From: a candidate division WWE3 bacterium
GTDB lineage: Bacteria > Patescibacteriota > 4484-211 > GCA-002791395
Direction: 5' to 3'
Assembly (NCBI GenBank): GCA_013335095.1
Contig: JAAXWF010000002.1
Span: forward strand, 261-64,260
DNA: 64,000 nt
Shown here: piece by piece, positions 11,920 to 56,814 of the stretch
How the letters are laid out: each line of letters starts with the position of its first letter
How positions within the stretch are numbered: the stretch's first letter is position 1
The notes under the pieces: generated by a model
Databases searched by the model: none
What the model was told of the DNA's origin: nothing
Seen by the model: only the letters and a program-made list of their open reading frames with translations
Translations under genes and position numbers: made by a program

Positions 11920-11989
11920 CCCCTCTGGGCAGCAGGATGCAGATAAAAAGTATCTCCCTCGTAATGAATTGTCGGAATACCGAGTGGAG

Positions 11990-26327: not shown

Positions 26328-26975
26328 ATGCAGAAAAGGCTACTCTTGATAACTATAATATTCACAGCAGCCGCTACCGGCACTCAATTCACCCCCAACG
26401 CATATGCTGAAGCACAAAAATGCTATGGTCAATACGGCCAGGAGATTACATGTCCATTAGTTAATAAATCATTTTCAGTCCAAAAAAGAGTACGCATAAG
26501 TGGAGCAACTGATTGGAGTGAAACCGTTAACGTGAAAAGCGGTACAACCGTAGAATTTCAAATTACTGTAAAAAATACCGGTGAAGCGAAAGTCAGCAAT
26601 GTTAATGTAATTGACGTATTACCTGATAATTTAAAAGAAGCCACTGGTGCAACCCAATGGGTAATCAATGATTTTGAATCCGGACAAGAGGAAACTCGAA
26701 CATTTTCGGTAAAAGCGAACGATACTAATATTACCGATAATCAAGAAAAATGTGTCGCTAACGTCGTTAATGTTCAATATAACGGTAATCAAGAAGCCTC
26801 AGATACAGCAGTTGTCTGTATTAGTAGAAATTCACATGTCTTACCAAATCAGCTTCCTGAAACAGCTGATTCATCAACCAATTCACTAAGAATGGTATTC
26901 GGAGTTATTTTGGCGGCATTTGCCCTACTGAGCTTCGGTAAAGCTATAGAACTTAGTACTAAAAGAGCAGACTAA
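26328..26975 (+). CDS. Secreted surface protein with DUF11/CARDB-like repeat domain and LPETA sortase sorting signal
   Basis: Signal peptide MQKRLLLITIIFTAAATGTQFTPNAYA. The beta-rich domain VEFQITVKNTGEAKVSNVNVIDVLPDNL resembles the 'conserved repeat domain'. The C-terminus is LPETA, a 9-aa spacer, the hydrophobic stretch VFGVILAAFALLSFG, and the charged tail KAIELSTKRAD. Confidence 0.6.
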   Translation: MQKRLLLITIIFTAAATGTQFTPNAYAEAQKCYGQYGQEITCPLVNKSFSVQKRVRISGATDWSETVNVKSGTTVEFQITVKNTGEAKVSNVNVIDVLPDNLKEATGATQWVINDFESGQEETRTFSVKANDTNITDNQEKCVANVVNVQYNGNQEASDTAVVCISRNSHVLPNQLPETADSSTNSLRMVFGVILAAFALLSFGKAIELSTKRAD

Positions 26976-27540: not shown

Positions 27541-27615
27541 GGCGGGTTCGTCTATCGGCTAGGACTCAGGATTTTCATTCCTGCAAGACGGGTTCAACTC
27601 CCGTACCCGCTGCCA
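27541..27615 (+). tRNA. tRNA-Glu (anticodon UUC)
   Basis: GGCGGGTTCGTCTATCGGCTAGGACTCAGGATTTTCATTCCTGCAAGACGGGTTCAACTCCCGTACCCGCTGCCA. The Glu-type D-arm GTCTAtcGGctAGGAC is present. Anticodon loop UUUUCAU. CCA encoded. Confidence 0.8.
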
Positions 27616-27656: not shown

Positions 27657-28793
27657 ATGTCAAATGAAACTCCTAAAGTAGCTATCGTTCATGATGTTCT
27701 ACATCGTTATGGTGGTGCTGAACGTGTGGTCGAACAAATCGCAAAGATTTGGCCCGATGCTGATATTTATACCAGCCGCTATATTTCACATCCAGAAACA
27801 AGTGAGATTGCTTCAAAAAAAATACACACAACGTTTATGCAACAATTACCGTGGTTTAATATGCTCGCTAAACTGTATACTCCCTTTTTCCCATTTGCGT
27901 TTGAATCACTGGATTTGCGTGCATACGACATAATAATAACGTCTACGGCACATTTCGCTAAAGGCGTATTAACGAATCCCGACCAATTACATATATGCTA
28001 CTGCCATACGCCACCTCGTTTCCTATATCAATATTCTTCGGAGAGTAAATCACGAAAAAGCGGTATACTTTCTCCAATTGTAACGGCACTGGATCATCGA
28101 CTTCGGATGTATGATTACGCGATTGCTCAAAGACCAGATATCGTTGTAACCAATTCACACACCACCGCTCAACGAATTAAAACATTTTACCAACGAGACC
28201 CCGAAGTTATCTACCCACCAATACCCATAGAACAATTAATTCCACAATCACCGATACCAAAAGATGACTATTATTTAGTCGTTTCACGTTTAGTTGCATA
28301 TAAAAATATTGATCTAATTATTAGATCATTTCGTTATCGCAAAGAGCGGTTGATAATTGTCGGTGATGGACCACAGCGCGAATATTTGCAAGGCATGGCA
28401 AGCAAAAACGTGGAATTTGTAGGATTTGTCGATAGAAGTAAACAAATTGATTATTATCAAAAAGCCAAAGCATTAATCTTAGCTACAGAGGATGAAGATT
28501 TTGGTATCACACCGGTTGAATCGATAGCAGCAGGAACCCCAGTAATCGCCTATCGTAGCGGTGGAATCACTGAAACCGTAAAAGACAAAGAAACTGGCAT
28601 TCTTTATGATTCATTGACCACGGAAGCGATTAATACAGCAATCGATGAATTCCAGTCAAGAAGCGTCATCCAAGATCCAACGACAATATCTATGAGCGTT
28701 AGTCAATATTCAGAGGCGACGTTTAGAGAAAAATTAAGAAATTTAGTTGTAGAGAATTGGGAGAAGTCTACCAACACTATCAACAACCGTTAG
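27657..28793 (+). CDS. Glycosyltransferase family 4
   Basis: The C-terminal motif EDFGITPVESIAAGTPVIAYRSGGITETV is the GT4 EX7E region. Confidence 0.8.
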   Translation: MSNETPKVAIVHDVLHRYGGAERVVEQIAKIWPDADIYTSRYISHPETSEIASKKIHTTFMQQLPWFNMLAKLYTPFFPFAFESLDLRAYDIIITSTAHFAKGVLTNPDQLHICYCHTPPRFLYQYSSESKSRKSGILSPIVTALDHRLRMYDYAIAQRPDIVVTNSHTTAQRIKTFYQRDPEVIYPPIPIEQLIPQSPIPKDDYYLVVSRLVAYKNIDLIIRSFRYRKERLIIVGDGPQREYLQGMASKNVEFVGFVDRSKQIDYYQKAKALILATEDEDFGITPVESIAAGTPVIAYRSGGITETVKDKETGILYDSLTTEAINTAIDEFQSRSVIQDPTTISMSVSQYSEATFREKLRNLVVENWEKSTNTINNR

Positions 28794-29035: not shown

Positions 29036-29219
29036 TACAATGCATTTTTTAGCACCTCTACAATTGAATTTATCTACCATTTTTGCTGTTCAAATAAAGA
29101 TCTGCCGGCGTACTGATGTCAGGTAAAAACGTGACCTCAATACGCATGCAGATCGACAGATCTAGCAGCGGACAAGTATATTGAGTAATCGGCACAAGGA
29201 ACTGTTCAAGGAGGGACGT

Positions 29220-31040
29220 ATGGGAAGAGTGCTATCTCTGGCACGTAGGTACGCAGTCGGAGCAGCTGCCTTTGCATTGATCGCAGTGATTGCGCTTGGT
29301 GCTTCGGCGCTACTAAGCAGTGGCAATAGTGGGCAGCAATTGGCATTGGCAGGGGCGGTAACCACAACGCCGACTGTGCCAGTGGCCAGTGTTAGTCCGT
29401 CATCAGCCGCAGTAACGCTAACACCATCTTTGTCCTCGGATACGCCAACAGCAGGGGGAACCACCGCCAGCATCGACATTCAGTTCGCTCAGTCGAGCCC
29501 AACCGTAGCCCGTACCGCCGGTACGGTTACCGCAGATACCGCTGCAGGTGCATATCCAGCACCGGCGACAGCGGTCACCGATACAGTAACGAGAACGCCT
29601 CAGCCAGCGGTAGCGTCTGTGACAGCAACGCTCACACCGCTCTCCACCACAACAACGGTGCATTCCACTCTGGTGATCAGCCAGACAAATCTCAATGAGA
29701 TGTCTGGAGGGGTTGCGTCGATCTGGGATTATGAAGGAGGGCTGAGAAAAGCGACCGATGGGGAACTTCAAGTTCTAACGGATACGCTGCTGCTTCCCCA
29801 TATGGCCACGAATCTGCAAACGATCGATAAGCCTCCGTTTGCACTCGGTCAGTTTCGGCTAATCCAGCCGACGACTGATGTTACGTGCGCTGAACCGCGG
29901 CTGCAAATGCCGCATATTGGGGAAACGCCAGACAAGCTGCACATTAACTTGTCGATCCAGACAAGTAACTGTGCGTTTGTGTTCACCTTGGCTGGTACGA
30001 CAAACATCAGTCCGACGCTTCGGCCCGCATTGATGATGAACGGAGGTAGTACCCACCCGGTCTCGGTGACGCTCACTGTCCTGACAGGGAGCATGAGCAG
30101 CAAGACGGTAAACGTACCGCTCAATACCGTTAAGCAAGCAATCCCGCTTGTGCCGGACATGGCGATCGAAGTAACAATTCCGGCTAACACCTTTGTGAGC
30201 CTCGACTACGCCGACACGGCTTTGTTCGGGGTCGAGGATGTAACTGGCGTTCCAGCTGATGCTGAAACGCGATTGTTCCTCAGCGATGCAGCCCCACGTG
30301 ACGAGCCCGCGCAAAAAGCATGGGAACTTGATCAGTGGACCTATGCCGCAACCGGCCTGGCAACATACCAGAAGCAGAATGGGCAAACGCTGGATGGTAT
30401 ACCAGACAACGGTGCCCACCTCGTCTTCTCTCAGCTGGCCATGGTCGGCCCGACAAACGAGAAGTATCCCTATGGTGGCGATTCGTGTGCGTGGCATACG
30501 ATGACACCTCGCGGGGGCGGGTTCTGGTTTGCCAATGCGGATAGTCGGATCACCAATGCGCTGTGCGGCAGTATTGCTGTACGAGGCCAGGGCCGATACG
30601 TCATCACCGGTGTCTCACAGGAAAATCTGCGGCACTGGGGTGCAGATGGGGACCCGCGCGTAGCGTTCGGCATCGCGGGCCATATGAGTGGTCGCTATCG
30701 GATCACCATCGCTCAAGTTGATCTGTCCACCTCTGATACCAAGGAGGAGTTGGTTGTCACTAAAGTGATCACCTCGACTCCCTGGCTTCAGTTGACGACT
30801 GGCCGCCCTCAATTCCAGGCGGACTGGAAGGGCGAGGCTTTCGTGGTGATCGAGTTCGATACCCCCTTTGGGCAGATCGATATCGGTCCCACAGCTGGAG
30901 CAACCAGCGTTGATGTCCGGTGGCCCACCAAGCCGCAGGACGCGCCGCAGGCGTCAAATCAACTCGATCTGGTTAGAACCAGCCTACCACCAGCCACCAC
31001 AAATAGGGGGCCAGTAGTGGCTACGCCGGGAGGTAGATAA
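29220..31040 (+). CDS. Secreted/anchored Thr-Ala-Ser-rich protein (GC-rich island gene)
   Basis: AAGGAGG RBS. The protein begins MGRVLSLARRYAVGAAAFALIAVIALGASALL, a signal anchor. About 150 aa of T/A/S/V/P low complexity follow, then about 400 aa of globular sequence. Local GC is about 60%. Confidence 0.55.
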   Translation: MGRVLSLARRYAVGAAAFALIAVIALGASALLSSGNSGQQLALAGAVTTTPTVPVASVSPSSAAVTLTPSLSSDTPTAGGTTASIDIQFAQSSPTVARTAGTVTADTAAGAYPAPATAVTDTVTRTPQPAVASVTATLTPLSTTTTVHSTLVISQTNLNEMSGGVASIWDYEGGLRKATDGELQVLTDTLLLPHMATNLQTIDKPPFALGQFRLIQPTTDVTCAEPRLQMPHIGETPDKLHINLSIQTSNCAFVFTLAGTTNISPTLRPALMMNGGSTHPVSVTLTVLTGSMSSKTVNVPLNTVKQAIPLVPDMAIEVTIPANTFVSLDYADTALFGVEDVTGVPADAETRLFLSDAAPRDEPAQKAWELDQWTYAATGLATYQKQNGQTLDGIPDNGAHLVFSQLAMVGPTNEKYPYGGDSCAWHTMTPRGGGFWFANADSRITNALCGSIAVRGQGRYVITGVSQENLRHWGADGDPRVAFGIAGHMSGRYRITIAQVDLSTSDTKEELVVTKVITSTPWLQLTTGRPQFQADWKGEAFVVIEFDTPFGQIDIGPTAGATSVDVRWPTKPQDAPQASNQLDLVRTSLPPATTNRGPVVATPGGR

Positions 31041-31174
31041 TTTTTAGAGGATTGTAAACAGCGGGCGGAGAGCACATCTTCGCCCTTTTTTATATACCTA
31101 ATAAGTTGATATTCACACTATAAGATATTATAATTTATGTGTTTCTAGATGAACGGCTAGCATAGGAGGACCCG

Positions 31175-32392
31175 ATGGGCAAACAGAGACGCTGGAGATT
31201 AGTGTACTCACTAATCATCTTGACGGGAGTCGTGTTACTGGGAGGCCACCAATACGCACGGGCATCAACGAAATACTTTTCGATGCTGCCAATGGTCCGA
31301 ACCTACCAGGCAGCCCAGCACACCCCGCAGACGGTAGAATACTGTGCGGAGGGGCTAGGGCAGCTCTATAACCAGAGCATCGGTGTATGCGGTAACAACG
31401 AAGCAGCACTGGCTCTGGAGATGCGCGCGAGCCTGGAGGGTGGCGAGGTCAAGCCGGGTGAGTTTGCCGGCCCAATCTATGGGGTTCAGCTCCAAATCAG
31501 TAGTCGACATGCACAAAATATCGGCTACCCCAATGGAGCGACACTCTACGAACTGGGCGGAAGCAAACGATTCCCAGAGCGGGATCCCATAGCCAGTACG
31601 CCGGTAACATTTGATCTGCCATCAGGCAGATATGGTTTGGGGCAATTCGTTGAGCCACCGCCCACCACGCCGACGACAGCGACACCGACTTCGACCACGG
31701 CACCGCCAACACCAAGTCCAACGACGACGGCAACAGCCACGCCTACACCGACGTATTGTCAGTCGGTGGGTATGCTCGATATCCCCGGATGGAATCACCA
31801 CATCTGTGGGGATCAGCAGATGGTGGATCTCGCCCAAGGATTGCTTCCGGGCCAGGTACGTGCCGGAACATTCCAGATTTGGCTCAAGGAACTACCTGCG
31901 GATCATGGTTATCCATCATATGGGGCCATGTTCTACGGGAATAGCCCTGGGGTAGAGGAGATGTCGGTACCGATTCCACTTGGTCAGCAGGTTACAATCC
32001 AGCTGTCGAGTGACTCGGGTGGAGTGAATCCGATCTGGGGGCTCGGACCCGGACCACTGCCAGTTGACGCCTGCCCTGGGGATTTGGTCAACCAGCTCAC
32101 GCGGATGTCCACCGGAGTCTGTGGCGACACCGCAGCTGAGACAGCAAACACACGGGAGTCGGCCCAGTTAGGTCAACTGGTGATTGCTGAGGTCAACGAG
32201 ACGGTACGCCTATGGATTAATCCAGACTTCGCCGGTAAAAATCCTGGCCATGGGTTTGTTAGCGGTGCATGTTTGTATAAGGCGGCATCAACCGATGCCG
32301 TCTATATCCCCTCTGGGGGATCACCAGGGCTGTTTATACTCAGCCAGGGTACGTGGGGAATAAGCACAGACACGAGCTGCCATCAGAGCTAG
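31175..32392 (+). CDS. Secreted protein with TPTT linker (GC-rich island gene)
   Basis: Signal peptide MGKQRRWRLVYSLIILTGVVLLGG. A central linker PPPTTPTTATPTSTTAPPTPSPTTTATATPTPT separates two Cys-containing domains. GC is about 60%. A terminator hairpin lies at 32418-32448. Confidence 0.55.
   Translation: MGKQRRWRLVYSLIILTGVVLLGGHQYARASTKYFSMLPMVRTYQAAQHTPQTVEYCAEGLGQLYNQSIGVCGNNEAALALEMRASLEGGEVKPGEFAGPIYGVQLQISSRHAQNIGYPNGATLYELGGSKRFPERDPIASTPVTFDLPSGRYGLGQFVEPPPTTPTTATPTSTTAPPTPSPTTTATATPTPTYCQSVGMLDIPGWNHHICGDQQMVDLAQGLLPGQVRAGTFQIWLKELPADHGYPSYGAMFYGNSPGVEEMSVPIPLGQQVTIQLSSDSGGVNPIWGLGPGPLPVDACPGDLVNQLTRMSTGVCGDTAAETANTRESAQLGQLVIAEVNETVRLWINPDFAGKNPGHGFVSGACLYKAASTDAVYIPSGGSPGLFILSQGTWGISTDTSCHQS
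31650..31760 (+). repeat. Low-complexity ACN/CCN codon repeat encoding a Thr/Pro/Ala linker
   Basis: ccaccacgccgacgacagcgacaccgacttcgaccacggcaccgccaacaccaagtccaacgacgacggcaacagccacgcctacaccgacg, inside ORF 31175..32392. Confidence 0.7.
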
Positions 32393-32446: not shown

Positions 32447-34330
32447 TTATTTAACGCGGAAGATCGCCATAGATTGATTTTCAAATAGCAGTTCAAAATC
32501 TGAAGATGATTTCAACGTGTTAATATAAACTAAATCACCTTGGGTTAAATCACGTGGTCTCCAGATATTAAAGTAATTCGCTTTACGTTGATCCATAGTT
32601 GCCTGCTGCCATTCAAAAAAACGTCCACTTACGACAAAGAGACGAGTTGTATCTGATTGTGGATTATTTATATCTTCAACTTTTTTAACCGCCTGAGCAA
32701 TTAATTTACTATCTGGGTTGGGAAAGGTGAAATCGACTAAATGACGGGTTTGATCATCGGCGTATGCTCCCCCTTGTGAATTAATTCCGGTATATGCCTC
32801 AAGGATATATTGAGTAGCTGGCTCACTAACCAAAAATACTTCACTCGGATCAGAAAACGTATTGGAGAGATACTTTGCCGCCTCGATCTCGCCTTCGGTT
32901 ACATGAGTATAAATTTTGTGATATCGAATATATTGCTTAAACTCAAACTGTTGATTGAATGTAAAAACTAACGACATAATGGCAATCCAGAATGAAAAAA
33001 GAATAATTTGAATCCGACGAGATCGAATAGCCATAACAAGCCACCCCAAACCAATCGACATTACAACATGGATATAAAATCGGGCAAAGGTATACAACTT
33101 TATATTGTAAGGGAACGGGAAGACGATACCAACTAACATCACCAAAGCAACTAAAACGGCGATTTTAGCCCATAGGTCTCTTTTTATAAGCCCAATAGCG
33201 CTGCCGAGTGGTACGAGGATATAAAGACTTAGTCCATACCAATTTTGGAAGATTCGGTTTTTCTCAGCAAGGGTTAAATCAAAGTACTTACTCTCGTCGC
33301 TATGAAAAGGATTAATACCAAGTCGAGCATTAAAAATAATTACGATCATTAAAAGCACAAGCGAAATTACGATCAACACTTGGATCCAACGCAAAACATT
33401 ATCTAAAGGAATTCCTTTTTGCTCACGATCAATAATGAACAGCAAAAATACCGCCAAGATAAACAAAGACACGGCGGCAACGGTCCCGACAAAAAAGTGA
33501 CTTAATATCAAAAAAACGCTCCAAACAATCAGTGGTATCCAGCCAATCCATTGTTTCCGTCGAACGCCCTCAATCAATGAAATAGTCATAATGACAGATA
33601 GGACGGCGATGACCGTTTGAGGTAAATGAAACAAAGAGGTATATGCTATATACGACTCAAATACAAATGCACCAAATAATACACCGATAACTGTAGGTCG
33701 CTGTCGATGAGTAAATGACCATACAATCCATCCAGATACGATAACCACAATAATATAATGTACAATCTCAAGCATCCAGTAATACCCAAATAAATCGACC
33801 GGTAAAAGTACGGTCGGAATATAGAGTAGCACATGATAAAACGGTAAGTACGTATTTACGAGAAAAGTGTCAGAGTATGATTTTAAATAAAGGGAAAACT
33901 CGCCCTGACGCATTTGCTGTATTAATGTTAAGTGTTCGTAAATATCCCAATTTAATGGAGAAGGATAAGGACTATTTCCCCTCCAAATAGTAAGCCCGAT
34001 ACCGATAATAATCACCGTAAAAATGGTAGGCATAAGCCAATGTTTTGTTAACCTTATTTTGGCCAACGTACGAATATCTTTATAAAAAGCACCAAGAGGT
34101 ACAAGGAGCGAGACGATCTCAAATCGTAGTAATATATGCTGAATGTTAACGCTCAGATCAAAAAGCTTTCCTACATAAGAAGTACCAGCAACCAACAGAG
34201 TTAACGTAAGTGTACCGGCAATCCAAATGGTTGGGATCTGAATTCGCCAACGACATACTTTACTAATCCAATATCCAATACTTATCGGTATCAAGTAAAA
34301 TAGAATGGCAGCACAAAGTGTAGTAATCAT
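32447..34330 (-). CDS. Polytopic membrane protein, GT-C-like (putative lipid-linked-sugar glycosyltransferase)
   Basis: 627 aa with about 13 TM helices and a C-terminal extracytoplasmic domain of about 190 aa. The first loop carries the motif NWDIYEH. It is a paralogue of 37190..38755. Confidence 0.45.
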   Translation of the reverse strand: MITTLCAAILFYLIPISIGYWISKVCRWRIQIPTIWIAGTLTLTLLVAGTSYVGKLFDLSVNIQHILLRFEIVSLLVPLGAFYKDIRTLAKIRLTKHWLMPTIFTVIIIGIGLTIWRGNSPYPSPLNWDIYEHLTLIQQMRQGEFSLYLKSYSDTFLVNTYLPFYHVLLYIPTVLLPVDLFGYYWMLEIVHYIIVVIVSGWIVWSFTHRQRPTVIGVLFGAFVFESYIAYTSLFHLPQTVIAVLSVIMTISLIEGVRRKQWIGWIPLIVWSVFLILSHFFVGTVAAVSLFILAVFLLFIIDREQKGIPLDNVLRWIQVLIVISLVLLMIVIIFNARLGINPFHSDESKYFDLTLAEKNRIFQNWYGLSLYILVPLGSAIGLIKRDLWAKIAVLVALVMLVGIVFPFPYNIKLYTFARFYIHVVMSIGLGWLVMAIRSRRIQIILFSFWIAIMSLVFTFNQQFEFKQYIRYHKIYTHVTEGEIEAAKYLSNTFSDPSEVFLVSEPATQYILEAYTGINSQGGAYADDQTRHLVDFTFPNPDSKLIAQAVKKVEDINNPQSDTTRLFVVSGRFFEWQQATMDQRKANYFNIWRPRDLTQGDLVYINTLKSSSDFELLFENQSMAIFRVK

Positions 34331-34333
34331 TTT

Positions 34334-35179
34334 TTAGTAGATAGCTAATTGTTCAAGGGTCAATATTTTTATATGTTGGTTCACGTTTAACTCCTTTTGA
34401 ATAGGGTACTCAAATGTTTCAAGTGATCCGATTAAATTATACTGACGATCAATCGTAACGACATTAGTATTTATTACATCCATCAGTAGTGCACGTTTGC
34501 TACTCTCATTGTAAATTGCAATATAACGAATACCACTTAGAGTACGAAGGTTTTCAGCTATTTGAGGATCTGACTTTAACCCAAGTTTCTTTAATAAATC
34601 AACGTTGGTTAATTGTGTATATACAATTCCATTTGAATCAAACACAATGTCTTCGCTCGTAAATCCCAATGTATTAACATAACCTGAGGCCTTATCTGAC
34701 ATGTTCTGTATTGTTTTGGTAATAATAATCTCATTATTTGTTGATTGAGCATCATATTCAACATAGTTGCGTTGATCTGATGCATATCTCACGATCGGAG
34801 TACCTGCTATGGACCGAATTCGATACCAGATAGTGTCTAAACGCCATTGTGAAGCCCTTTTGATATATATATTCGTAATATCTTCATTAGCGAAGGCAAG
34901 CTTCTCTATTCGAGTACTATTAGTTTCGTCGGCAAGCACTAATGCGTCATCATAAGGGGATACTTTGTAATAAATTGAAGGATTCCGATCATGGTTAAGG
35001 CTTATAGAATACTCGTATGCTTGAACATTAAATCCATCAACGCTTAAGCGAGAAGGGACATTAAGGCGTTGACCACTAATAATTACAATTATGCCGATCG
35101 TTATAATTAAAGAAATAAGTAATATTTGCACCCAGAGCTTATATCTCATAGTCTTTACTATTTTACTATACGTATACAA
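34334..35179 (-). CDS. Membrane-anchored extracytoplasmic protein (hypothetical)
   Basis: 281 aa with an N-terminal TM helix. It is co-directional with, and 4 nt upstream of, the GT-C-like gene. Confidence 0.4.
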   Translation of the reverse strand: MYTYSKIVKTMRYKLWVQILLISLIITIGIIVIISGQRLNVPSRLSVDGFNVQAYEYSISLNHDRNPSIYYKVSPYDDALVLADETNSTRIEKLAFANEDITNIYIKRASQWRLDTIWYRIRSIAGTPIVRYASDQRNYVEYDAQSTNNEIIITKTIQNMSDKASGYVNTLGFTSEDIVFDSNGIVYTQLTNVDLLKKLGLKSDPQIAENLRTLSGIRYIAIYNESSKRALLMDVINTNVVTIDRQYNLIGSLETFEYPIQKELNVNQHIKILTLEQLAIY

Positions 35180-35236
35180 ATCACGCTAATAGATCCACGG
35201 ATTGACAGGACCCATAGTATTTGCTAGACTCATAGC

Positions 35237-36013
35237 ATGTTTCGACAAAAAACAATTACTGTTGTACTACCTTGTAAAAATGAAGAAAAAGGCATCGTAC
35301 CTACGATAAAAGCAATTCCTACATACGTTGATGAAATCATAGTCGTGGATAATGGATCAAACGACAACACCGCGCGCTTAGCCAAACGACATGGTGCTCG
35401 GGTAATTAAAGAATCACGAAAACAGCATGGTATTGGATATGGTTATGCTCATATGACCGGTATTAATTCAGCCAAAGGCGATTACATTGTCGGCATGGAT
35501 GGGGATGGAACTTATCCAGCCGAAGCGATAAAAGAAGTCATAAAATACATGGAAAAAAATAAACTGAACATGGTTTCATGTAATCGATTTCCACTCCAGC
35601 ACCGAGCGATATCATGGATTAGACAGATCGGTGTTCACATTTTGAACTGGGAAGTACGAATCCTATATGCCTACCCAATGAAAGATATATTAACCGGCAT
35701 GTGGGTTATAAAGCGCAGTGCACTCAATCATTTAGATTTAAAAGAAGGAGATTGGAATTTATCACCCGAAATTAAACTTGCTGCAATAACAAGCCCACAT
35801 ATTCGATTCGGGCAGTTCCACATCAACCATCATGTCAGGACTGGAGAAAGTAAACAGAATATTTGGAAAACTGGGTATGATCATTTTATGTATATTTTTT
35901 TACGAAGAGTGACAACAGATAACAAAGTAACGCACGTCCTTCGAAATGCATATCAGTCAACGATTTTAGGACTGCGAAGTATGGTCGTAGGATTTTCTCA
36001 ACGGATCCGATAA
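35237..36013 (+). CDS. Glycosyltransferase family 2, polyprenol-phosphate sugar synthase (Dpm1/Ppm1-like)
   Basis: 258 aa. VVLPCKNEEKGI...VVDNGSNDNT...GMDGDGTYP has the size and motifs of dolichyl/polyprenyl-phosphate mannose or glucose synthases. Confidence 0.75.
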   Translation: MFRQKTITVVLPCKNEEKGIVPTIKAIPTYVDEIIVVDNGSNDNTARLAKRHGARVIKESRKQHGIGYGYAHMTGINSAKGDYIVGMDGDGTYPAEAIKEVIKYMEKNKLNMVSCNRFPLQHRAISWIRQIGVHILNWEVRILYAYPMKDILTGMWVIKRSALNHLDLKEGDWNLSPEIKLAAITSPHIRFGQFHINHHVRTGESKQNIWKTGYDHFMYIFLRRVTTDNKVTHVLRNAYQSTILGLRSMVVGFSQRIR

Positions 36014-36019
36014 CTTACT

Positions 36020-37207
36020 ATGAACCAACATCCCTTCCGAATACTCGCATTACTCACTTTTTTTTATCCCCATCGAGGTGGCAGTCAAAAATATGCCGAA
36101 GACTTGTACGTCGGACTGTTGGAGCATAATCCATCAACCGAAATAGATGTTCTTTGTTACAACACATGTAAACAACCACATGAGGAATATTATCGGGGTC
36201 TGCATATCTATCGAGTGGCATGTTTTACCATCATCCCAGATCGATTTGTTCTACCAAATCCGATCACGCTTATGAGAACATTATGGAAGCTTCGGACGAG
36301 GAAGTACAACATTGTTAACCCTCACGTTCAATTCTTTGATGTGAGCTGGTGGGGATGGATATATGCAAAACTGATCAACGCAAAATCGATTTGTACCGTG
36401 CATACTGACCATGCCAAACATCAATCAAAATTCATTCAATTAGTGGCCCGTTTCATCGATGAAACCATTGTTAGAGCTTCATTAAAACGATACGATCACA
36501 TAACGGTAGAAAATGAACATACTCAACGTTTTATTATCAATAAGTACCATGTAGTAAATACAACAGTTGTGCGTGGAACAATTGATACACGACAATTTAG
36601 CCATGAAAATAGAACAACACTCGTAAAAATACCAGGTACCGATATATTAGTCGGACCCAATACTCAGATAGTTAGTTATATTGGACGATTACTATGGACT
36701 AAAGGCGTTTTATATGCATATGAAGCATTTAGGGAATTGGCATATTCACGTGGAGATGTACTATTTGTTATAGCTGGTCCTGGAGAATTATATGAACAAC
36801 TAGCGTCAAAAATTATGAGGGATGGACTATCACAAAAAGTTCTCCTGACTGGAAATTTAAATTATGCCGAAGTGCAACAGTTACTTCGTATTACCGATAT
36901 TTTTACCTTACCCACCCATCATAATGAAGGGATACCAATCATCCTACTCGAAGCGGGGGCAAGTAAATGTACCGTCATAACAACAAGTGTCGGCGGAATT
37001 GCGGAGATTATTGATGATCAGTCGGGATACATTATAAAAACTCACGATCCTCGGATGTTAAAAGATACAATAGAATATGCTTTAAACCATCCTGAGGAAC
37101 GAAAAACACTCGCGAATAATTTACAACAGAAAATCAAAAATAAACACGATATAAGCATAGTTAGTGAAGAGTTTTCAAGAGTAGTAGAATCAATTGTCAG
37201 CAAATAA
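36020..37207 (+). CDS. Glycosyltransferase family 4
   Basis: GT-B fold with C-terminal EGIPIILLEAGASKCTVITTSVGGIAEII. Confidence 0.75.
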   Translation: MNQHPFRILALLTFFYPHRGGSQKYAEDLYVGLLEHNPSTEIDVLCYNTCKQPHEEYYRGLHIYRVACFTIIPDRFVLPNPITLMRTLWKLRTRKYNIVNPHVQFFDVSWWGWIYAKLINAKSICTVHTDHAKHQSKFIQLVARFIDETIVRASLKRYDHITVENEHTQRFIINKYHVVNTTVVRGTIDTRQFSHENRTTLVKIPGTDILVGPNTQIVSYIGRLLWTKGVLYAYEAFRELAYSRGDVLFVIAGPGELYEQLASKIMRDGLSQKVLLTGNLNYAEVQQLLRITDIFTLPTHHNEGIPIILLEAGASKCTVITTSVGGIAEIIDDQSGYIIKTHDPRMLKDTIEYALNHPEERKTLANNLQQKIKNKHDISIVSEEFSRVVESIVSK

Positions 37208-38755
37208 TTCGAGTACAATAATATTTGGATCACGAATCACCTCATGAAATGCCCCGTCAGTTAGCAGCATGTCTGCATACTTAATCCCCTCAATTGATAG
37301 TTCCCGAGGAGCCCAAATGGATACGGTGTTATCCGACCTGAGTTGGTTGGGCAACCGCTGCCAGGCCATAAATCGGCCATCGATTACAAACAAGATGCGG
37401 GTAGCTGGTGCTTGGATAAGATCCCGTATGGAACGGAGTTGCGTCTTAACATCATCAATTGATTTGCTTGGGAATAGATTATCAATAGAAGTTCGATTTG
37501 CATCACGAACAAAAACGCCACCAGGAGTATTAATACCCGATATGCCTTCAAAAACCTGCATAGTTGCCGGATCACTTATAAGTATAGTGCTCGAATCAGA
37601 GCCATATTTTTCTTTTAACCTCAATGCGGTCGAGATCTCATCTTCTGATGATGTTGCAGGTCCAAGATACGAAGCATAGGCCATTTTATACGTAATCTGA
37701 TTGATATAAAAGTTAATACACAAAAGGGCTAAAAGACTTCCACCGATAACTGTTCGCCATCTAATCTGCGAGAACTGATCGAGTAGGCAGAGTCCGCCAA
37801 TGCTCATGATCGTAAATATAAAGTAGCGCGTGAGGGTGTAAAGCTTAAGTACGTACGGAAATGGACTTAAAATAATGCATAGTTGAACGAGGGTAATGAT
37901 TGATATAACGTGCAAATTATTACTATCTTTCCGCCCGATAGCAAATAGACCGATAAAGAATAAAACCCACCACCCACCATACCATTGCAATAGAGTTTGA
38001 ACTTTATCGATAAGCGATACGGTAAAAAGACGACTCTCGATCGTATTAAACGGATCCCATCTAAAAAGTCCACTGTTTAATAACAAAATCATCACCAGGA
38101 AAAAAATATGCAGGAAAATCAGTTTTCTTTTGTCTTGAAATATTCTTTCGAGATACGATCGATACCGTAAACATAAAAGTAAAATAACGGCTAAGCTTAG
38201 TGCATAAAATCCAAGCACCGCATGAAACAACCATGCAACGCTAATTAAAATCACAGAAAAATAATATTTCCTTTTAATTATCAGCGTCAAACTAATCAAT
38301 CCAATAACCGAAGCCGCTGTTTGAGGCACAAAAGAAAAGCCCGATTGCGAAAGTAATGATTCAAAGCTCAATGCACCAATTAATCCAGATATTAACCACA
38401 CCCGTCTATCGTTAGTCCAGATTGATGAGAACACAAAAGCTAATGTAGCACACAGAATATAAAACAAGCCTTCAATCAACCACCAACTCGTTTGTAGGGT
38501 TAGAAATCGTTGCAAGAATGATGATAATAAACCAAAACATACCGCAAACAGTGGAGTATACATCGCATACTGAAACGTATCAGAAAGATGTGTCGGTAAA
38601 AGACTTAAGTTCCCAGATACAATAATCGACCATAACCCAGCGTGCTGATATAAATCCCATGTTAAGCTACCCAGAGGCCTCCCCAAACTAAAGATAATCC
38701 AGACAAGGATTCCGGTACATAATACAGTTACATAATATAGCCACGTTTTTTTCAT
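37190..38755 (-). CDS. Polytopic membrane protein, GT-C-like (paralogue of 32447..34330)
   Basis: 521 aa and multi-TM. Loop-1 motif SLTWDLYQHAGL (compare PLNWDIYEHLTL in the paralogue). A C-terminal soluble domain is present. Confidence 0.45.
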   Translation of the reverse strand: MKKTWLYYVTVLCTGILVWIIFSLGRPLGSLTWDLYQHAGLWSIIVSGNLSLLPTHLSDTFQYAMYTPLFAVCFGLLSSFLQRFLTLQTSWWLIEGLFYILCATLAFVFSSIWTNDRRVWLISGLIGALSFESLLSQSGFSFVPQTAASVIGLISLTLIIKRKYYFSVILISVAWLFHAVLGFYALSLAVILLLCLRYRSYLERIFQDKRKLIFLHIFFLVMILLLNSGLFRWDPFNTIESRLFTVSLIDKVQTLLQWYGGWWVLFFIGLFAIGRKDSNNLHVISIITLVQLCIILSPFPYVLKLYTLTRYFIFTIMSIGGLCLLDQFSQIRWRTVIGGSLLALLCINFYINQITYKMAYASYLGPATSSEDEISTALRLKEKYGSDSSTILISDPATMQVFEGISGINTPGGVFVRDANRTSIDNLFPSKSIDDVKTQLRSIRDLIQAPATRILFVIDGRFMAWQRLPNQLRSDNTVSIWAPRELSIEGIKYADMLLTDGAFHEVIRDPNIIVLELFADN

Positions 38756-39417
38756 ATCGGTATTGCTGGAATTCGCTTAAAAGATTGTTGGATATGGTAC
38801 ATAGGTATCTGCATAGAGTCTGATAACGAAATAATCACCTCATGCTGCGCCCAGTTGATATGAGCTTGAGTCCGGTCAGGCAAAGAGAACTCAATACCCT
38901 CAGATAATTGATCATTTATTAACTTAAATGTTGTACCAGCACTGAATGAACTCTCAAGATGAAAGGATCCAACACTGATATCGTCTCCATTCACATATAC
39001 ATGATCTTCGGGAGAGAATTCAATTACATATTTATAATCGGATGATCCAATGTTCCTTGGTGATATAGTTTGATCCCACATAAGGATATTATCCTTCGTA
39101 TTTATCGTGCTGGACCCAATATTTGTTTGATTTAATGTGAGTGGAAAAGATAGTGTATTCGTAAATATAACACTCAATAAGGAGCTGAAATTTATAGTCT
39201 GTATGGCGGATTGTTGTGCATTTTCATAGTAAGAATGGAGACTATACGTGTGAGCTCTTAATAAATCATCTTGAAGTACGAATGATGAATTCATTGGCGT
39301 TATCGTAAAACTACCCCATCGCAGCATTTGTATTTTTCCTAATGATAAATAAATACTGTAACAACTAATCATGATGATGGTAAGAACACCGATCCACGGA
39401 GTATATTTTTTATCCAT
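38752..39417 (-). CDS. Membrane-anchored extracytoplasmic protein (hypothetical)
   Basis: 221 aa with an N-terminal TM helix. ATGA overlap with the downstream GT-C-like gene. Confidence 0.4.
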   Translation of the reverse strand: MDKKYTPWIGVLTIIMISCYSIYLSLGKIQMLRWGSFTITPMNSSFVLQDDLLRAHTYSLHSYYENAQQSAIQTINFSSLLSVIFTNTLSFPLTLNQTNIGSSTINTKDNILMWDQTISPRNIGSSDYKYVIEFSPEDHVYVNGDDISVGSFHLESSFSAGTTFKLINDQLSEGIEFSLPDRTQAHINWAQHEVIISLSDSMQIPMYHIQQSFKRIPAIPI

Positions 39418-39507: not shown

Positions 39508-40224
39508 ATGAAAAACTCAAAAAATCATTATTCATTTCAATTGATGCATGTAGCGATTCTACTGCGAGGTATTGCAGTTGGATTATTATTTCTTGGCGGT
39601 ACAATGGCGTTCGTGGGCGCATATCCAATTCTTTTTTCCGAGATACATTATGAAATAAACCAACAAGCCGAAGCAAAAGTCATAGAAAATACAACAAATA
39701 TGGATCCCAATCGTTCGAATTTTGGCGAAATACTACGCATCGCCCCAATACTTAGACAAACACCGGTCAATACGACAAACGCAATCGTAATCGATCAAAT
39801 CGAAGTTAACGTACCTGTTGTATGGGATGTTTCGGTTGTAAATAAAAACGATTACAACAGTGCATTGAAAATTGGAGTTGCTCATGCTGCCGGAACAAGT
39901 TATCCTTCCCAAAACGATGGAAACACCTATCTATTTTCACATTCAACCCTAAACCCGCTTGAAATTGAAAAATATTCGGCTGCATTCACGTTACTGCACC
40001 GACTAGAGATCGGAGATAAGATCGTGGTTTTCCGAGACAACCATAGGTATGACTACGTAGTGGAACAGAAAGAGGTGGTCAAGGGCTTTAATACCGATCC
40101 ATTAACTCGTCAGCCAGATTATCCTCAATTAACGCTACAAACGTGCGACCCACCTGGAATTCCATTAAATCGTCTGATTATTACGTCACGAATGGTCGCC
40201 GATTACGAGGTCTCTGGAAAGTAA
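39508..40224 (+). CDS. Sortase (cysteine transpeptidase)
   Basis: N-terminal TM anchor. The His box is LFSHSTLNP, the catalytic Cys motif is LTLQTCDPPG, and the conserved Arg is in LIITSRMV. Confidence 0.8.
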   Translation: MKNSKNHYSFQLMHVAILLRGIAVGLLFLGGTMAFVGAYPILFSEIHYEINQQAEAKVIENTTNMDPNRSNFGEILRIAPILRQTPVNTTNAIVIDQIEVNVPVVWDVSVVNKNDYNSALKIGVAHAAGTSYPSQNDGNTYLFSHSTLNPLEIEKYSAAFTLLHRLEIGDKIVVFRDNHRYDYVVEQKEVVKGFNTDPLTRQPDYPQLTLQTCDPPGIPLNRLIITSRMVADYEVSGK

Positions 40225-48922: not shown

Positions 48923-49561
48923 ATGCTGTCTTCTATTCTTGAATCTATTACGACATGGGGATTACACATAATTTCACTTGGGGGATATTGGGGAATTTTT
49001 AGTATTTCATTACTTGAAAATGTTTTTACGCCAATTCCGAGTGAAGCAATCATACCTTTTGCTGGAATATTAGTTAGTCAAGGAAAGTTTTCATTTACGC
49101 TTGTAGTTGTTGCTGCAACCTTGGGCAGTCTTATCGGTGCTTATGTTTTCTACTATGTCGGCTATATACTTGGAGCTGATCATATCAAACAGTTTATTAT
49201 CAAGTGGGGAAAGTATTTTTTTCTATCCGAAGATGACGTAAAAAGAGCCGAAGAATGGTTTAGCAAATATGGAATGTGGGCTGTACTTATTTGCCGCGTT
49301 ATACCGCTTGTAAGAAGCTTTATCTCTATTCCGGCCGGATACGTTAAGTTGCCATTTTGGAAATTTAGCGTTCTGACCGCAATTGGATCTGGCTTATGGT
49401 CTACTTTTCTGGTTTATATAGGTTTTGCATTAGGAGAAAATTATCATATAATTGAACCGTACATAAGTACGATCGAAAAGGTCGTTGCGATAATTCTAGC
49501 GATTGGTTTTGGGTATTACTTGTTCCTAAAAATGTCTGCGGCTCGCAAATCTGTAATGTAA
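48923..49561 (+). CDS. dedA: DedA/SNARE-associated family membrane protein
   Basis: 212 aa and 4-5 TM helices. The DedA motif region is ...ENVFTPIPSEAIIPFAGILV...YGMWAVLICRVIPLVRSFISIPAG. Confidence 0.8.
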   Translation: MLSSILESITTWGLHIISLGGYWGIFSISLLENVFTPIPSEAIIPFAGILVSQGKFSFTLVVVAATLGSLIGAYVFYYVGYILGADHIKQFIIKWGKYFFLSEDDVKRAEEWFSKYGMWAVLICRVIPLVRSFISIPAGYVKLPFWKFSVLTAIGSGLWSTFLVYIGFALGENYHIIEPYISTIEKVVAIILAIGFGYYLFLKMSAARKSVM

Positions 49562-49633: not shown

Positions 49634-49832
49634 ATGTTTGTCTTATAGTATAAAACAACATACTATATTTGCACCTAATACAAATCATCAGGGGGCAGAA
49701 TGGATATGGATTTATTCGATATTCACTTTGCCCTCTAATGAGAGCTGGGCATTTTGCCCATGGAAGCTCGATTTGGAGTGGTTTGTAAAGCCACACTGAT
49801 AGGAGGGGTTGAATACCCCAGGAGGTGTCCAG

Positions 49833-50846
49833 ATGGTTGACATTCTGCATCGCGAAGATACTCGCGAAGAGACTGTTCGTACACGTCGCGCACGCCCTGA
49901 GCAGTTGGGGGCGGTGATTCCGCCCAGTGTCGAGGGCCTAACGCCATGGAGGGAGGATCCCCGGTACGAATACCGGACCCCGGAGAACCTTCCGTGGCCG
50001 GCGGCATTCATCTGGGTAGTCAACACAGCGCCTCGCAGGCCTGGCGACAAGAACACCCAAATGAGCCGGCGTCAGGGGGAGATCCTCTGGGCCGCGCCGA
50101 TGTGGTCCGTCTCGATGCGTAAGACCATTCCGCCGACGGCGGAGAGGGCTCTGAGCATCGCCCGGCGCAAGAAGGGGCCGGAGATTCGGCCCGACCAGGT
50201 GAGTTTCGCCCTGGCGATCTACAAGAAGGGGCGTATTCGCCCCCATTCAGATCTCCTGGGGGAACCAGCGGGGAACTACTTCGAGCTGGTATTCACTCTG
50301 AATCCCCTCGAGATCGAGGCGATTCTGATGAATCCCGATAACGATGCTACGATGCTTCTGGAGAAGCTCGACGCTCAGGGATACCTGGGTGTTCCGGCTG
50401 ATCCGAGCCGAGCCGAGGAGATCAAGGACCGCGTGCTACAGCAGATGGTCACGTTGATCAAGGCAGCAGGTCGTACCGACCTGCTCGAAGTGAGCAACAC
50501 GGCAGACAGCAGCACTCCCAGCATCGGCGAGGGGGATCTGTTGATCACCGCCGCTGATATCGAGGCCGCACGTGGTTACGTGAAGGCAGCGCAGTTCGCA
50601 ATGCCGACACAGTCACAGGTTGCGACGACTCTGGCCCTGCTGGAGAAGAAGGGGCGTACCCTCGTCCCGACTGCCCTGCTGGCCGATCTGCCGGAGGAGC
50701 TGCTGACGAAGTACGGCCTCAAGCGGCCCGACTCAGTCAGTCCGGCTCCCGCCGCGGTCAAGCCTGCGGTTGCGCCCGCAGAGCCGCCGGCTCCCGCAAA
50801 GCAGCCGGCTTCGTCCGCCCTGGCCGCCCTGCTGGGCGGTAATTAA
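49833..50846 (+). CDS. Hypothetical protein with Pro/Ala-rich C-terminal tail (island gene A)
   Basis: GGAGG lies 7 nt upstream of the ATG at 49833 (MVDILHREDTREETVRTRRARPEQ...). The ORF-track TTG at 49809 is rejected. The C-terminus is PAPAAVKPAVAPAEPPAPAKQPASS. GC is about 60%. Confidence 0.5.
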   Translation: MVDILHREDTREETVRTRRARPEQLGAVIPPSVEGLTPWREDPRYEYRTPENLPWPAAFIWVVNTAPRRPGDKNTQMSRRQGEILWAAPMWSVSMRKTIPPTAERALSIARRKKGPEIRPDQVSFALAIYKKGRIRPHSDLLGEPAGNYFELVFTLNPLEIEAILMNPDNDATMLLEKLDAQGYLGVPADPSRAEEIKDRVLQQMVTLIKAAGRTDLLEVSNTADSSTPSIGEGDLLITAADIEAARGYVKAAQFAMPTQSQVATTLALLEKKGRTLVPTALLADLPEELLTKYGLKRPDSVSPAPAAVKPAVAPAEPPAPAKQPASSALAALLGGN

Positions 50847-50884
50847 GCAGGGGATTAGGTTCGTGTTCGTCCGTTAGCAACAGT

Positions 50885-50914
50885 CCAAAGGCCACCTTGA
50901 GTGGTGGCCTTTGG
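50885..50914. terminator. Stem-loop (12-bp perfect stem) after island gene A
   Basis: CCAAAGGCCACC-ttgagt-GGTGGCCTTTGG. No clear U-tract. A 290-bp AT-rich spacer follows. Confidence 0.45.
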
Positions 50915-51225
50915 ACCACTCAATTAAATTATTGACCTTGTCAGTCTTTATGATCCAGAATCGTAAAGAGTGATAAGGTCGACAGACCAAACAATCTATG
51001 TAGGGTCGGTGCGGCCATATACACAAAACCAAATTTAAGACAGTTTGGTTTTTTTCATAATTGGTGTATAAGAATTATGTAATAAAACGCACATTTACAA
51101 AGATAAATACCACACTCAGAGGGACTATTAATGACAAGTAATATGCTCATTCATTAATTGTTTTTAATAGCCCCTTTGGGTGAAGCCGTTTTACGGCTTG
51201 TGGAAGTCTTTATCGGGAGGTGTCT

Positions 51226-51597
51226 ATGACACGGGTTAACAGGTTGCGACTGGCCTCAACAGTCGCAGCAGCATTCATGGCCGCAACGCTGGCCTTGGTG
51301 CTGCTCGTTGGGAGCGGGTCGGAATACACCGCCCGCGTCGGATTCGTGGTTACCATTCTAACCATCGCGTTAGTGCCAACGGCGCTGACCGCGGTGGTCG
51401 CATGGGTGGTGCCGCCAGTGCGCGCGTCATGGCGCACCTGGTACGGCACAAGCTTCGGAGGAGCGATCCTTTCGTCGGTAGCCATGTCGTTTAAGGGGGA
51501 GCTCTATGCCCCGCAACGGCAGGTTATCGTCGAGCAGGTCGAGACTCCAGCTGAGCCCGCTGGTCCGGACCCAGGCTATACCGTCATCAGCTACTAA
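51226..51597 (+). CDS. Small 3-TM membrane protein (island gene B), directly upstream of the rho-like gene
   Basis: GGGAGG RBS, then ATG at 51226 (MTRVNRLRLASTVAAAFMAATLALVLLV...). Three hydrophobic helices and a Pro/Glu C-terminal tail. The stop is 12 nt before the rho-like start. Confidence 0.45.
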   Translation: MTRVNRLRLASTVAAAFMAATLALVLLVGSGSEYTARVGFVVTILTIALVPTALTAVVAWVVPPVRASWRTWYGTSFGGAILSSVAMSFKGELYAPQRQVIVEQVETPAEPAGPDPGYTVISY

Positions 51598-51609
51598 AGG
51601 GGGCTGACA

Positions 51610-53193: not shown

Positions 53194-53199
53194 GAAACA

Positions 53200-53240
53200 C
53201 CTGTCGCAGCAGCAAACGCTGCGACAGGTTACTATTTTAA
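53200..53240 (+). terminator. Intrinsic terminator after rho-like gene
   Basis: CCTGTCGCAGC-agcaaac-GCTGCGACAGG is an 11-bp perfect stem, followed by TTACTATTTT. Confidence 0.7.
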
Positions 53241-53314
53241 TATTGTGGATTTAAAAAATCTGTTTTCTAACGGATTCTTTTAGTTCATAATGTCGCACAT
53301 TAAGAATATTGACT

Positions 53315-53388
53315 CACATGGGTCGGTTGTCATCATCATCGTTGGTGGTTACAACTGACCCATGTGGGTTGCCCTGGTTTAACCAGGG
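53315..53388 (+). promoter_or_regulatory. Two stem-loops/palindrome immediately upstream of island gene D
   Basis: A long imperfect hairpin at 53315-53366 has 10-bp perfect outer arms, CACATGGGTC...GACCCATGTG. The perfect palindrome CCCTGGTTTAACCAGGG at 53372-53388 abuts the ORF-track start. A TTGACT -35-like hexamer lies at 53309. Confidence 0.4.
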
Positions 53389-53412
53389 ATGGAGTTCACA
53401 CCGGAGGGTCAT

Positions 53413-54693: not shown

Positions 54694-54705
54694 CATATAT
54701 TGGAT

Positions 54706-54737
54706 GGGAGAGAGGCGACTCTCTCCCTTTTTTTTTA
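54706..54737 (+). terminator. Intrinsic terminator after island gene D
   Basis: GGGAGAGAG-gcga-CTCTCTCCC, followed by T10. Confidence 0.8.
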
Positions 54738-54752
54738 TCTAAGGAGGAGCCA

Positions 54753-56636: not shown

Positions 56637-56658
56637 AATACTAAGGTCATACATCAAA

Positions 56659-56688
56659 CCGGCCACTGGGAAACCAGTGGCCTTTTTT
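56659..56688 (+). terminator. Intrinsic terminator after island gene E
   Basis: GGCCACTGG-gaaa-CCAGTGGCC, followed by TTTTTT. Confidence 0.8.
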
Positions 56689-56814
56689 ATATAATTAACG
56701 TTTAAACGATGTCGTAAGATTGTAAGAATTTTTCGAGATCGCTTAAGACGCCGATCAACCACGCCCCTTAAATTTAGCCCTCGGGCCGGGCAGTCTAGCG
56801 CAAGGAGGTTGACC

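Follow-up and report, generated by a model that had tools for sequence, protein, structure and literature searches.

At positions 32447-39417 of a 64,000-nt stretch of a candidate division WWE3 contig (hereafter the window, to whose numbering all coordinates refer), two large polytopic membrane proteins stand on both sides of a pair of genes for glycosyltransferases of families 2 and 4 (GT2 and GT4), and the question raised by this locus is whether they are glycosyltransferases themselves and, if so, what they would glycosylate. The host belongs to the candidate phyla radiation (CPR, or Patescibacteria), with a bulk GC content of ~40%; the cell envelope of this group is almost uncharacterised, yet it mediates an episymbiotic lifestyle. 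Our results revealed that the GT2, the GT4, the polytopic protein and a single-pass partner protein constitute a conserved module, and that the polytopic proteins, judged by a modelled structure, are a previously unclassified family of GT-C glycosyltransferases with a fold like that of the oligosaccharyltransferases (OST), outside the STT3, PMT, ArnT and YfhO families. The membrane enzyme of this module is annotated just as a hypothetical protein, without a Pfam or NCBIfam model, and would count as a further family among the GT-C enzymes. Moreover, an OST-fold GT-C with a conserved partner, in a system whose logic is familiar, offers a concrete and testable entry to surface glycosylation in the CPR; a literature search on GT-C enzymes, OST or protein glycosylation in CPR, Saccharibacteria or Patescibacteria found nothing relevant.

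The six genes of the locus are grouped as three tightly packed transcription units, and are listed here together with a promoter-like site lying among them (TM, transmembrane).

32447..34330, minus strand: predicted GT-C paralogue A, 627 aa, long form; paralogous to B, with a 44% identical orthologue in the related locus L057
34334..35179, minus strand: partner protein with an N-terminal TM helix, extracytoplasmic; one TM helix, residues 17-35; member of the partner family
35202..35230, plus strand: promoter-like site between the divergent operons; TTGACA-17-TAGACT with TG extension, 10/12 matches
35237..36013, plus strand: GT2, Dpm1/AglJ/GtrB-like, no TM helix; PF00535, 3e-24
36020..37207, plus strand: GT4, GT-B fold, cytoplasmic; PF00534, 3e-32, and PF13439
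37190..38755, minus strand: predicted GT-C paralogue B, 521 aa, short form; GT-C fold by AlphaFold2 and Foldseek
38752..39417, minus strand: single-pass anchored protein, 221 aa, 5' of paralogue B; one TM helix, residues 9-27

In the first unit (minus strand) the gene for a 281-aa single-pass protein is followed after a 3-nt gap by the 627-aa polytopic gene; in the second (plus strand) the 258-aa GT2 gene is followed after 6 nt by the 395-aa GT4 gene, which is placed in the GT2 operon because of this short distance; in the third (minus strand) the gene for the 221-aa single-pass protein overlaps that of the 521-aa polytopic protein by 4 nt. The first and second units are divergent with 57 nt between them, while the third is convergent with the GT4 gene. 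The promoter-like site is a consensus match only, and the region has no more sites of this kind than chance would give. As for the gene at 34334-35179, its longest open reading frame (ORF) begins with TTG and has 281 aa, and the NCBI annotation, HGA91_02995, has 271 aa, 10 codons shorter; translation probably begins further downstream, with the ATG at 35149. Paralogue B is 100% identical to HGA91_03010, a hypothetical protein in NCBI.

The two polytopic proteins are paralogous, as the initial annotation of this DNA had claimed (28% identity over ~540 residues, E=1e-52), and neither has a family match in Pfam (E<=0.1), NCBIfam or the PDB sequences. A profile of 66 family members returned nothing from the PDB sequences at E<=10, and the same 66 members searched against Pfam gave scattered single-member matches only (E>=0.025), with no known GT-C model such as PMT, PMT_2 (PF13231) or STT3 (PF02516), and no YfhO model (PF09586), among them. 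The family itself is large: among 1.84 billion representative proteins searched with a profile, 248 clusters at 50% identity reached E<=1e-3, including both short (~520 aa) and long (~620 aa) forms, of which the long is commoner, and none of ten sampled clusters bears an informative name.

It is the structure that assigns the family. The AlphaFold2 model of paralogue B, built from the 66-sequence alignment, has a predicted local distance difference test score (pLDDT) of 94 and a predicted TM-score (pTM) of 0.93, and when this model was compared with the PDB by Foldseek, the 20 matches with E<=1e-3 were GT-C glycosyltransferases without exception; in fact all those with E<0.1 are GT-C enzymes. 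The OST catalytic proteins come first (7oci_F, 8agc_A, 3rce_A and 5gmy_A; E from 1e-7 to 2e-5, query TM-score (TMq) from 0.53 to 0.59). The matches by protein are as follows.

STT3 of yeast and human: E 1e-7 to 1e-5, TMq 0.50-0.57
PglB, 3rce_A: E 5e-7, TMq 0.59
DPY19, 7zli_A: E 9e-6, TMq 0.43
AglB, 5gmy_A: E 2.1e-5, TMq 0.53
AftA, 8if8_C: E 5.9e-5, TMq 0.35
ALG9, 9s6s_A: E 2e-3, TMq 0.46
Pmt4, 9i5k_A: E 0.026, TMq 0.41, weak

Moreover, the C-terminal alpha/beta domain of paralogue B (~160 residues) matches the C-terminal globular domain of AglB (3vu0_C, target TM-score (TMt) 0.55). ArnT (GT83) and YfhO are not in the top 50 matches; the model contains no MIR domain or large loop domain, and the Pfam profiles PMT and PMT_4TMC are unmatched. 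The initial annotation had called these proteins GT-C-like after PMT and ArnT: the GT-C assignment agrees with the fold, but the nearest relatives are OST enzymes, PMT is weak and ArnT falls outside the top 50. What it had set down as speaking against its proposal, a resemblance to non-glycosyltransferases such as YfhO together with the lack of an acidic residue in loop 1, is not what we find, since the fold is that of GT-C and the loop-1 Asp is invariant.

By DSSP and the positive-inside rule, paralogue B has 11 TM helices with the N-terminus inside and the C-terminus outside, and its first external loop (residues 24-86) is long, with two helices inside it. Paralogue A carries an N-terminal extension of ~93 residues with two hydrophobic segments, which brings it to ~13 TM helices; its C-terminal domain is extracytoplasmic. 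The ~13 helices first ascribed to each protein thus fit the 627-aa paralogue but not the 521-aa one, while the extracytoplasmic C-terminal domain suggested for both is borne out. Conservation was read from the alignment of the 66 relatives, which have ~25% identity, with residues in the 521-aa numbering. W33, D34, D59 (in SDTF), Y66, H178, G182, T398 and W465 are invariant in 66/66, and H38, E240, K304, R421 and D445 are conserved in >=90%; the loop-1 motif, L(N/T)WD(L/I/V)Y(Q/E)H, with the Asp that had been pointed out at the outset, is therefore a family-wide feature, its W33 and D34 being invariant. The conserved polar residues D34, H38, D59, E132, Q145, H178, E240, Y301 and K304 all face outward. 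In contrast to the WWDYG motif of the oligosaccharyltransferases, the WWD is found in 0/66 members.

The genomic neighbourhood in relatives provides the other half of the evidence. Loci were collected by scanning GTDB representative genomes and JGI metagenomes with a 12-sequence pattern and, in addition, by two exact look-ups, and the 57 loci so obtained reduce to 41 distinct ones, of which 37 are low-GC (CPR-like) and 4 high-GC (acidobacterial). The genes adjoining the GT-C in the two groups are as follows.

GT2, 41-63% identical to the window GT2: 32/37 CPR-like, 0/4 acidobacterial
GT4, 34-53% identical to the window GT4: 31/37 CPR-like, 0/4 acidobacterial
partner-family ORF ending at the GT-C start: 29/37 CPR-like, 2/4 acidobacterial
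GT2, GT4 and partner together: 24/37 CPR-like, 0/4 acidobacterial

Low-GC loci in which the GT2, the GT4 or the partner is missing lie almost all at contig ends. The module is present in WWE3, Saccharibacteria, Levybacteria-like and other CPR lineages. Other neighbour families are far rarer, the commonest being DUF11 proteins with sortase sorting signals (15 loci), then LysM proteins and sortase; a sortase is near the module in 7 locus clusters and adjoins it in L056. The DUF11 sortase substrates are found 2-7 kb from the GT-C, with the signals LPETS, LPATA, LPNTG, LPVAG and xPSTG, and the window has a DUF11 protein of its own at 26328-26975, with an LPETA signal and a C-terminal TM helix. As for labels, the high-GC homologues (L005, L007, L009, L010, L043-45 and L050) are named Acidobacteriota/Vicinamibacteria and have a gene for a TPR protein downstream, and three low-GC (0.38-0.43) contigs of metagenome-assembled genomes with the CPR-type module (L003, L006 and L008) are titled 'uncultured Pseudomonadales', a label that looks doubtful.

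In nearly all cases the gene directly 5' of the GT-C has a product of 175-285 aa with a single TM helix at the N-terminus, and the stop of this gene usually overlaps the start of the GT-C by 4 nt; in the window this is a 4-nt overlap for paralogue B and a 3-nt gap for paralogue A. These partner proteins, including the 281-aa protein of the window, are one fast-evolving family (hidden Markov model (HMM) E from 3e-45 to 4e-84), the alignment of which has no invariant column. Such fast evolution fits a non-catalytic subunit or an acceptor adaptor, single-pass and beta-rich, which is what we infer the partner to be. The eukaryotic OST has single-pass beta-rich subunits which the partner loosely resembles, by way of analogy only. 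The 221-aa protein occupies the same position 5' of paralogue B, and has a syntenic counterpart of 215 aa in L056.

Turning to the cytoplasmic enzymes, the identification of 35237-36013 as a Dpm1-like GT2 holds: besides PF00535, it is matched best in NCBIfam by AglJ (1e-30), a haloarchaeal dolichyl-phosphate (Dol-P) hexose transferase (2e-20) and the mycobacterial PpgS (1e-14), and its residues 2-223 align with the Dol-P-mannose synthase of Pyrococcus (5mlz), including the VVDxxSxD and MDxDxxxP motifs, where in the DXD region MDGDGTYP stands against MDADLQHP. The GT2 is accordingly predicted by homology to be a polyprenyl-phosphate sugar synthase. The GT4 and the two anchored extracytoplasmic proteins noted earlier at the locus are likewise there, the former by PF00534 and the latter by one N-terminal TM helix each; the GT4 is a standard GT-B enzyme, whose closest functionally characterised relative in the PDB is WlaC/PglH (6eji, 5e-10).

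In the three-component paradigm, a polyprenyl-phosphate sugar synthase, a flippase and a GT-C act together (PMC11127046). It is probable that the four-gene module is an extracytoplasmic glycosylation system of this lipid-linked-sugar type, the enzymatic steps of which are all predictions. The GT2 would move a sugar from a nucleotide sugar onto undecaprenyl phosphate at the cytoplasmic face, as its homologues suggest, and the GT4, also cytoplasmic, may add a second sugar to the lipid-linked one or else build the acceptor. The lipid-linked sugar would then be flipped across the membrane by some flippase, and the GT-C with its co-translated partner would transfer the sugar to an acceptor in the cell envelope outside; the active site of the GT-C is probably formed by D34 of loop 1 with D59, E132, H178 and E240. 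A single GT2-GT4 pair flanked by two GT-C/partner pairs suggests one donor with two acceptors, or two positions on an acceptor. In several relatives (L001/L014, L002 and L011-13) a GtrA-family gene (PF04138, 4e-19) lies directly 3' of the GT-C, so that the classical trio is complete there, and GT2-GtrA fusions also occur among these loci. Taken together, the extra parts beside the module occupy 11556-13193, 13105-13596 and 6091-7179 in L014, and such parts are seen also in L001, L011-13 and L002. They comprise the GtrA gene, a GT2-GtrA fusion and, in L014, a second polytopic protein of 545 aa, which has 11 TM helices with DD in loop 1, is likewise unmatched in Pfam and is possibly a further unclassified GT-C. 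As another observation, the window encodes a DedA/VTT-domain protein at 48923-49561 (PF09335, 2e-23), a possible carrier-recycling component for the module; transport of polyprenyl phosphate has been proposed as a role of the DedA/VTT proteins.

Several points weigh against such a system as we draw it. No GtrA-family flippase gene was found in the 64-kb window by tblastn and HMM searches, and the classical three-component scheme leaves the role of the conserved GT4 unexplained. The GT2 scores far under the equivalog cut-offs of NCBIfam, those of AglJ, the Dol-P hexose transferase, PpgS and ArnC included (107 against 325 bits for AglJ, then 72.8 against 375 and 54.4 against 370), so its lipid-phosphate acceptor is only what homology would predict. 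The acidobacterial homologues have no adjoining GT2 or GT4. On the side of the partner, homology of the 221-aa protein to the partner family was not shown (BLAST negative, hhalign probability 22-41%), and the AlphaFold2 model of the partner, from 4 sequences, has a pLDDT of 51.5 only.

The question of the acceptor leads to the genes beside the module, which are listed as follows.

29181..31040, plus strand: N-terminally anchored protein, 619 aa, with a Thr/Ala/Pro-rich stalk by its composition, high GC
31175..32392, plus strand: secreted Thr/Pro-linker protein, 405 aa, with three Cys-containing domains, high GC; convergent with paralogue A
39508..40224, plus strand: sortase, PF04203 6e-19; divergent neighbour outside the core of the module, followed by trmD and ruvB

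The Thr/Pro-rich linkers that had been remarked in the two adjacent proteins are present: 31175-32392 has the stretch PPPTTPTTATPTSTTAPPTPSPTTT..., with a T/P/S fraction of 0.92 over 25 residues, and 29181-31040 has Thr/Pro-rich stretches too. These genes stand outside the operons of the glycosylation genes, and each is flanked by its own near-consensus promoter-like and strong terminator-like sites. In L057, where the GT-C, GT2 and partner are 44%, 63% and 38% identical to their window counterparts, two 412-aa genes with a GC content of 0.60-0.61 lie in the same convergent position, the first of which is 43% identical to the 405-aa protein; for the positional counterpart of the 619-aa protein there homology was not established, and no homologue of the 619-aa protein was found in the other loci. 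By an HMM of the 405-aa family, members were also detected 2-4 kb 3' of the GT-C in L011, L013 and L014 (GC 0.55-0.59 in genomes of ~0.41). Counting the window, five locus groups, all of one clade, thus have a member of the family convergent with the GT-C at a distance of 0.1-3.6 kb, and a word-index search of 5.8 billion proteins with the 405-aa protein returned the L057 member only. A Thr/Pro-rich ORF of any kind is found in the flanks of only 7/47 low-GC fetched loci, or ~1 per 75 kb, and ~30/37 of the CPR-like loci have no Thr-rich neighbour.

What, then, would be glycosylated? Surface proteins and an envelope glycan or glycolipid seem about equally likely to us as the acceptor, and neither is held more than tentatively, each being put somewhat below an even chance. 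For the former, the initial annotation had proposed O-glycosylation of Ser/Thr in Thr/Pro linkers by a system like Ppm1/Pmt, with 31175-32392 and 29181-31040, and perhaps the DUF11 sortase substrates, as substrates. The GT-C, the GT2 and the neighbourhood in one clade stand with this proposal: the 405-aa family keeps its place beside the GT-C in five locus groups even at 30-44% GT-C identity, which makes a protein acceptor a live possibility, and its only other homologue in the 5.8 billion proteins adjoins a GT-C as well; the closest structural relatives, OST and DPY19, are protein glycosyltransferases; the recurrent neighbours are surface proteins (DUF11 in 15 loci, sortase in 7, LysM, Ig-like) rather than polysaccharide-synthesis genes; and the promoter-like and terminator-like sites of the Thr-rich genes fit abundant proteins. 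However, a general link is absent, as Thr/Pro-rich ORFs occur in so few of the low-GC loci and the 405-aa family is limited to one clade, and since most loci are without a Thr-rich neighbour, O-mannosylation like that of PMT is only partly supported. The family was found only in loci fetched by way of the GT-C, hence subject to ascertainment bias, and the Thr-rich genes are in other operons; PMT is a weak fold match (E=0.026) with neither a Pfam PMT match nor a MIR domain in the module protein; and linkers of the TPTPTP type are common across CPR secreted proteins. Were the acceptor indeed a protein, the module would be a new bacterial protein-glycosylation system. For the latter acceptor, the models are Gtr acting on O-antigen, CsbB/YfhO on teichoic acids, GacI/GacL on rhamnopolysaccharide and PimA/PimB'/Ppm1/PimE on lipoglycan, and the GT4 would build the acceptor or its lipid anchor in the cytoplasm. 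The characterised bacterial pairs of a polyprenyl-phosphate-sugar synthase and a GT-C mostly modify glycans or lipids, which are thus the commonest target, and a conserved cytoplasmic GT4 fits a scheme like that of the phosphatidylinositol mannosides (PIM), in which the GT4 makes a glycolipid and the GT-C extends it. AftA and ALG9, whose acceptors are glycans or lipid-linked, are also significant fold matches, and the cluster at 3155-9910 of the window could supply a polymer acceptor. Yet that cluster, of Wzx/Wzy type, is 22 kb off and was not seen in other loci, no polysaccharide or teichoic-acid genes recur beside the module in the 41 loci, and the top fold matches modify proteins.

Two other readings are much less favoured. 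If the GT2 primed undecaprenyl phosphate, the GT4 added a second sugar and the GT-C transferred the short monophosphate-linked glycan whole in the manner of an OST, then the GT4 being conserved like the GT2 would be accounted for; haloarchaeal AglB transfers Dol-P-linked glycans en bloc, AglJ is the top NCBIfam match of the GT2, the best characterised PDB relative of the GT4, PglH/WlaC, extends a lipid-linked glycan, and the top folds of the GT-C are STT3, PglB and AglB, with the C-terminal domain matching AglB 3vu0. We regard this nevertheless as quite unlikely, considering that the WWDYG motif is absent from all 66 members and no Pfam STT3 match exists at E<=0.1, that the sequence matches are all far under family cut-offs, and that the GtrA-type flippases of some relatives are typical of monosaccharide carriers. 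In a related and also unlikely picture, the CPR would possess a minimal protein-glycosylating machine, OST-descended or convergent, in which a heterodimer of the GT-C and the beta-rich subunit uses a short undecaprenyl-monophosphate-linked glycan built by the GT2 and GT4, and targets the Thr-rich family with paralogue A and the sortase substrates with B. That the polytopic proteins are instead transporters or structural membrane proteins, with the adjacency to glycosyltransferases incidental, is very improbable. The lack of any sequence family assignment would allow it, and major facilitator superfamily (MFS) transporters are among the weak fold matches (E>0.1, probability <0.3), but GT-C enzymes account for all twenty matches with E<=1e-3, the family has invariant Asp, Glu and His residues on the outer face, and the adjoining GT2 and GT4 recur in most of the CPR-like loci.

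The extracytoplasmic glycosylation system proposed here can be compared with several known ones. With the Gtr system (GtrA/GtrB/Gtr*; PMC11127046) it shares a GT2 synthase gene beside a polytopic GT-C with the active site outward and, in the relatives mentioned above, a GtrA-family gene beside the GT-C; unlike it, the window GT-C belongs to no described sequence family, GtrA is missing from the window, the GT2 has no TM helices where GtrB has two, and the module has an extra conserved GT4 and a coupled partner, in a CPR host without lipopolysaccharide (LPS) O-antigen. The STT3/PglB/AglB enzymes (GT66) resemble the GT-C in fold over the whole length including the C-terminal globular domain, in acidic residues of the first external loop and in a conserved Glu in a later external loop, and the GT2 is closest to AglJ of the haloarchaeal AglJ...AglB pathway; the module GT-C, however, is without WWDYG or an STT3 Pfam match, has 11 TM helices in the short form, and is only ~12% identical. 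As in the actinobacterial Ppm1/Pmt system (GT39), there is a Dpm1-like synthase with a GT-C bearing a loop-1 Asp, and Thr/Pro-rich secreted proteins are nearby, while the loop-1 motif is WD rather than DE, no PMT Pfam match or MIR domain is present and the fold match is weak; as the host is a WWE3 bacterium of the CPR and not an actinobacterium, the Ppm1/Pmt frame is only an analogy.

Among the Firmicutes, CsbB-GtcA-YfhO, GtlA-GtlB and GacI-GacJ-GacL likewise combine a GT2 synthase of undecaprenyl-phosphate sugar with a GT-C that acts on an envelope polymer of a monoderm, and GacJ is a small membrane partner protein in its system; in contrast, the module GT-C has no YfhO Pfam match, and the module partner goes with the GT-C and not with the GT2, and has a large extracytoplasmic beta-rich domain. 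The mycobacterial PimA/PimB'-Ppm1-PimE route also joins a cytoplasmic GT4, a GT2 synthase and an extracytoplasmic GT-C, whereas we found neither a sequence relationship to PimE nor evidence of a phosphatidylinositol pathway, and the module genes are clustered and operonic.

Some observations outside the module deserve mention. The cluster at 3155-9910 consists of a Wzx-like flippase (PF01943), a GT2, a GT4, a GT2 and two tandem Wzy_C proteins, and is a possible source of a glycan acceptor or of a flippase; Wzy_C proteins can also act as O-oligosaccharyltransferases. An Rfam scan of the window detected tRNAs only. The Thr-rich genes have a GC content of 0.56-0.57 and a third-codon-position GC (GC3) of 0.58, against a GC3 of 0.29-0.37 in the module. 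That they are a recently acquired horizontal island was considered and rejected, since position and high GC are kept in L057, between orthologues 43-63% identical. The raised values recur (GC 0.55-0.61, GC3 0.58-0.73) at 29181-32392 of the window, 4377-7090 of L057, 14000-17000 of L014, 5074-6753 of L011 and 7969-9288 of L013, so that, with orthologous proteins 30-63% identical, the GC excess is a persistent compositional anomaly and not a recent transfer. A second and larger high-GC block is seen in the window at 49800-56800 (GC 0.55-0.63, GC3 0.63-0.78), where Pfam matched none of the ORFs 49809-50846, 53389-54693 and 54753-56636, and matched 51610-53193 only weakly, to an ATP-synt_ab-like P-loop. 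Possibly akin to the ORFs of this block is that at 16047-17495, which has a GC content of 0.51 and is also unmatched in Pfam. Finally, another GT4 lies at 27657-28793, just 5' of the high-GC Thr-rich genes and beside a tRNA gene at 27541-27612; its best NCBIfam match is monoglucosyl-diacylglycerol synthase (4e-15, below cut-off), and both L013 and L014 have an orthologue of it (46-51% identical) at 5-8 kb from their GT-C.

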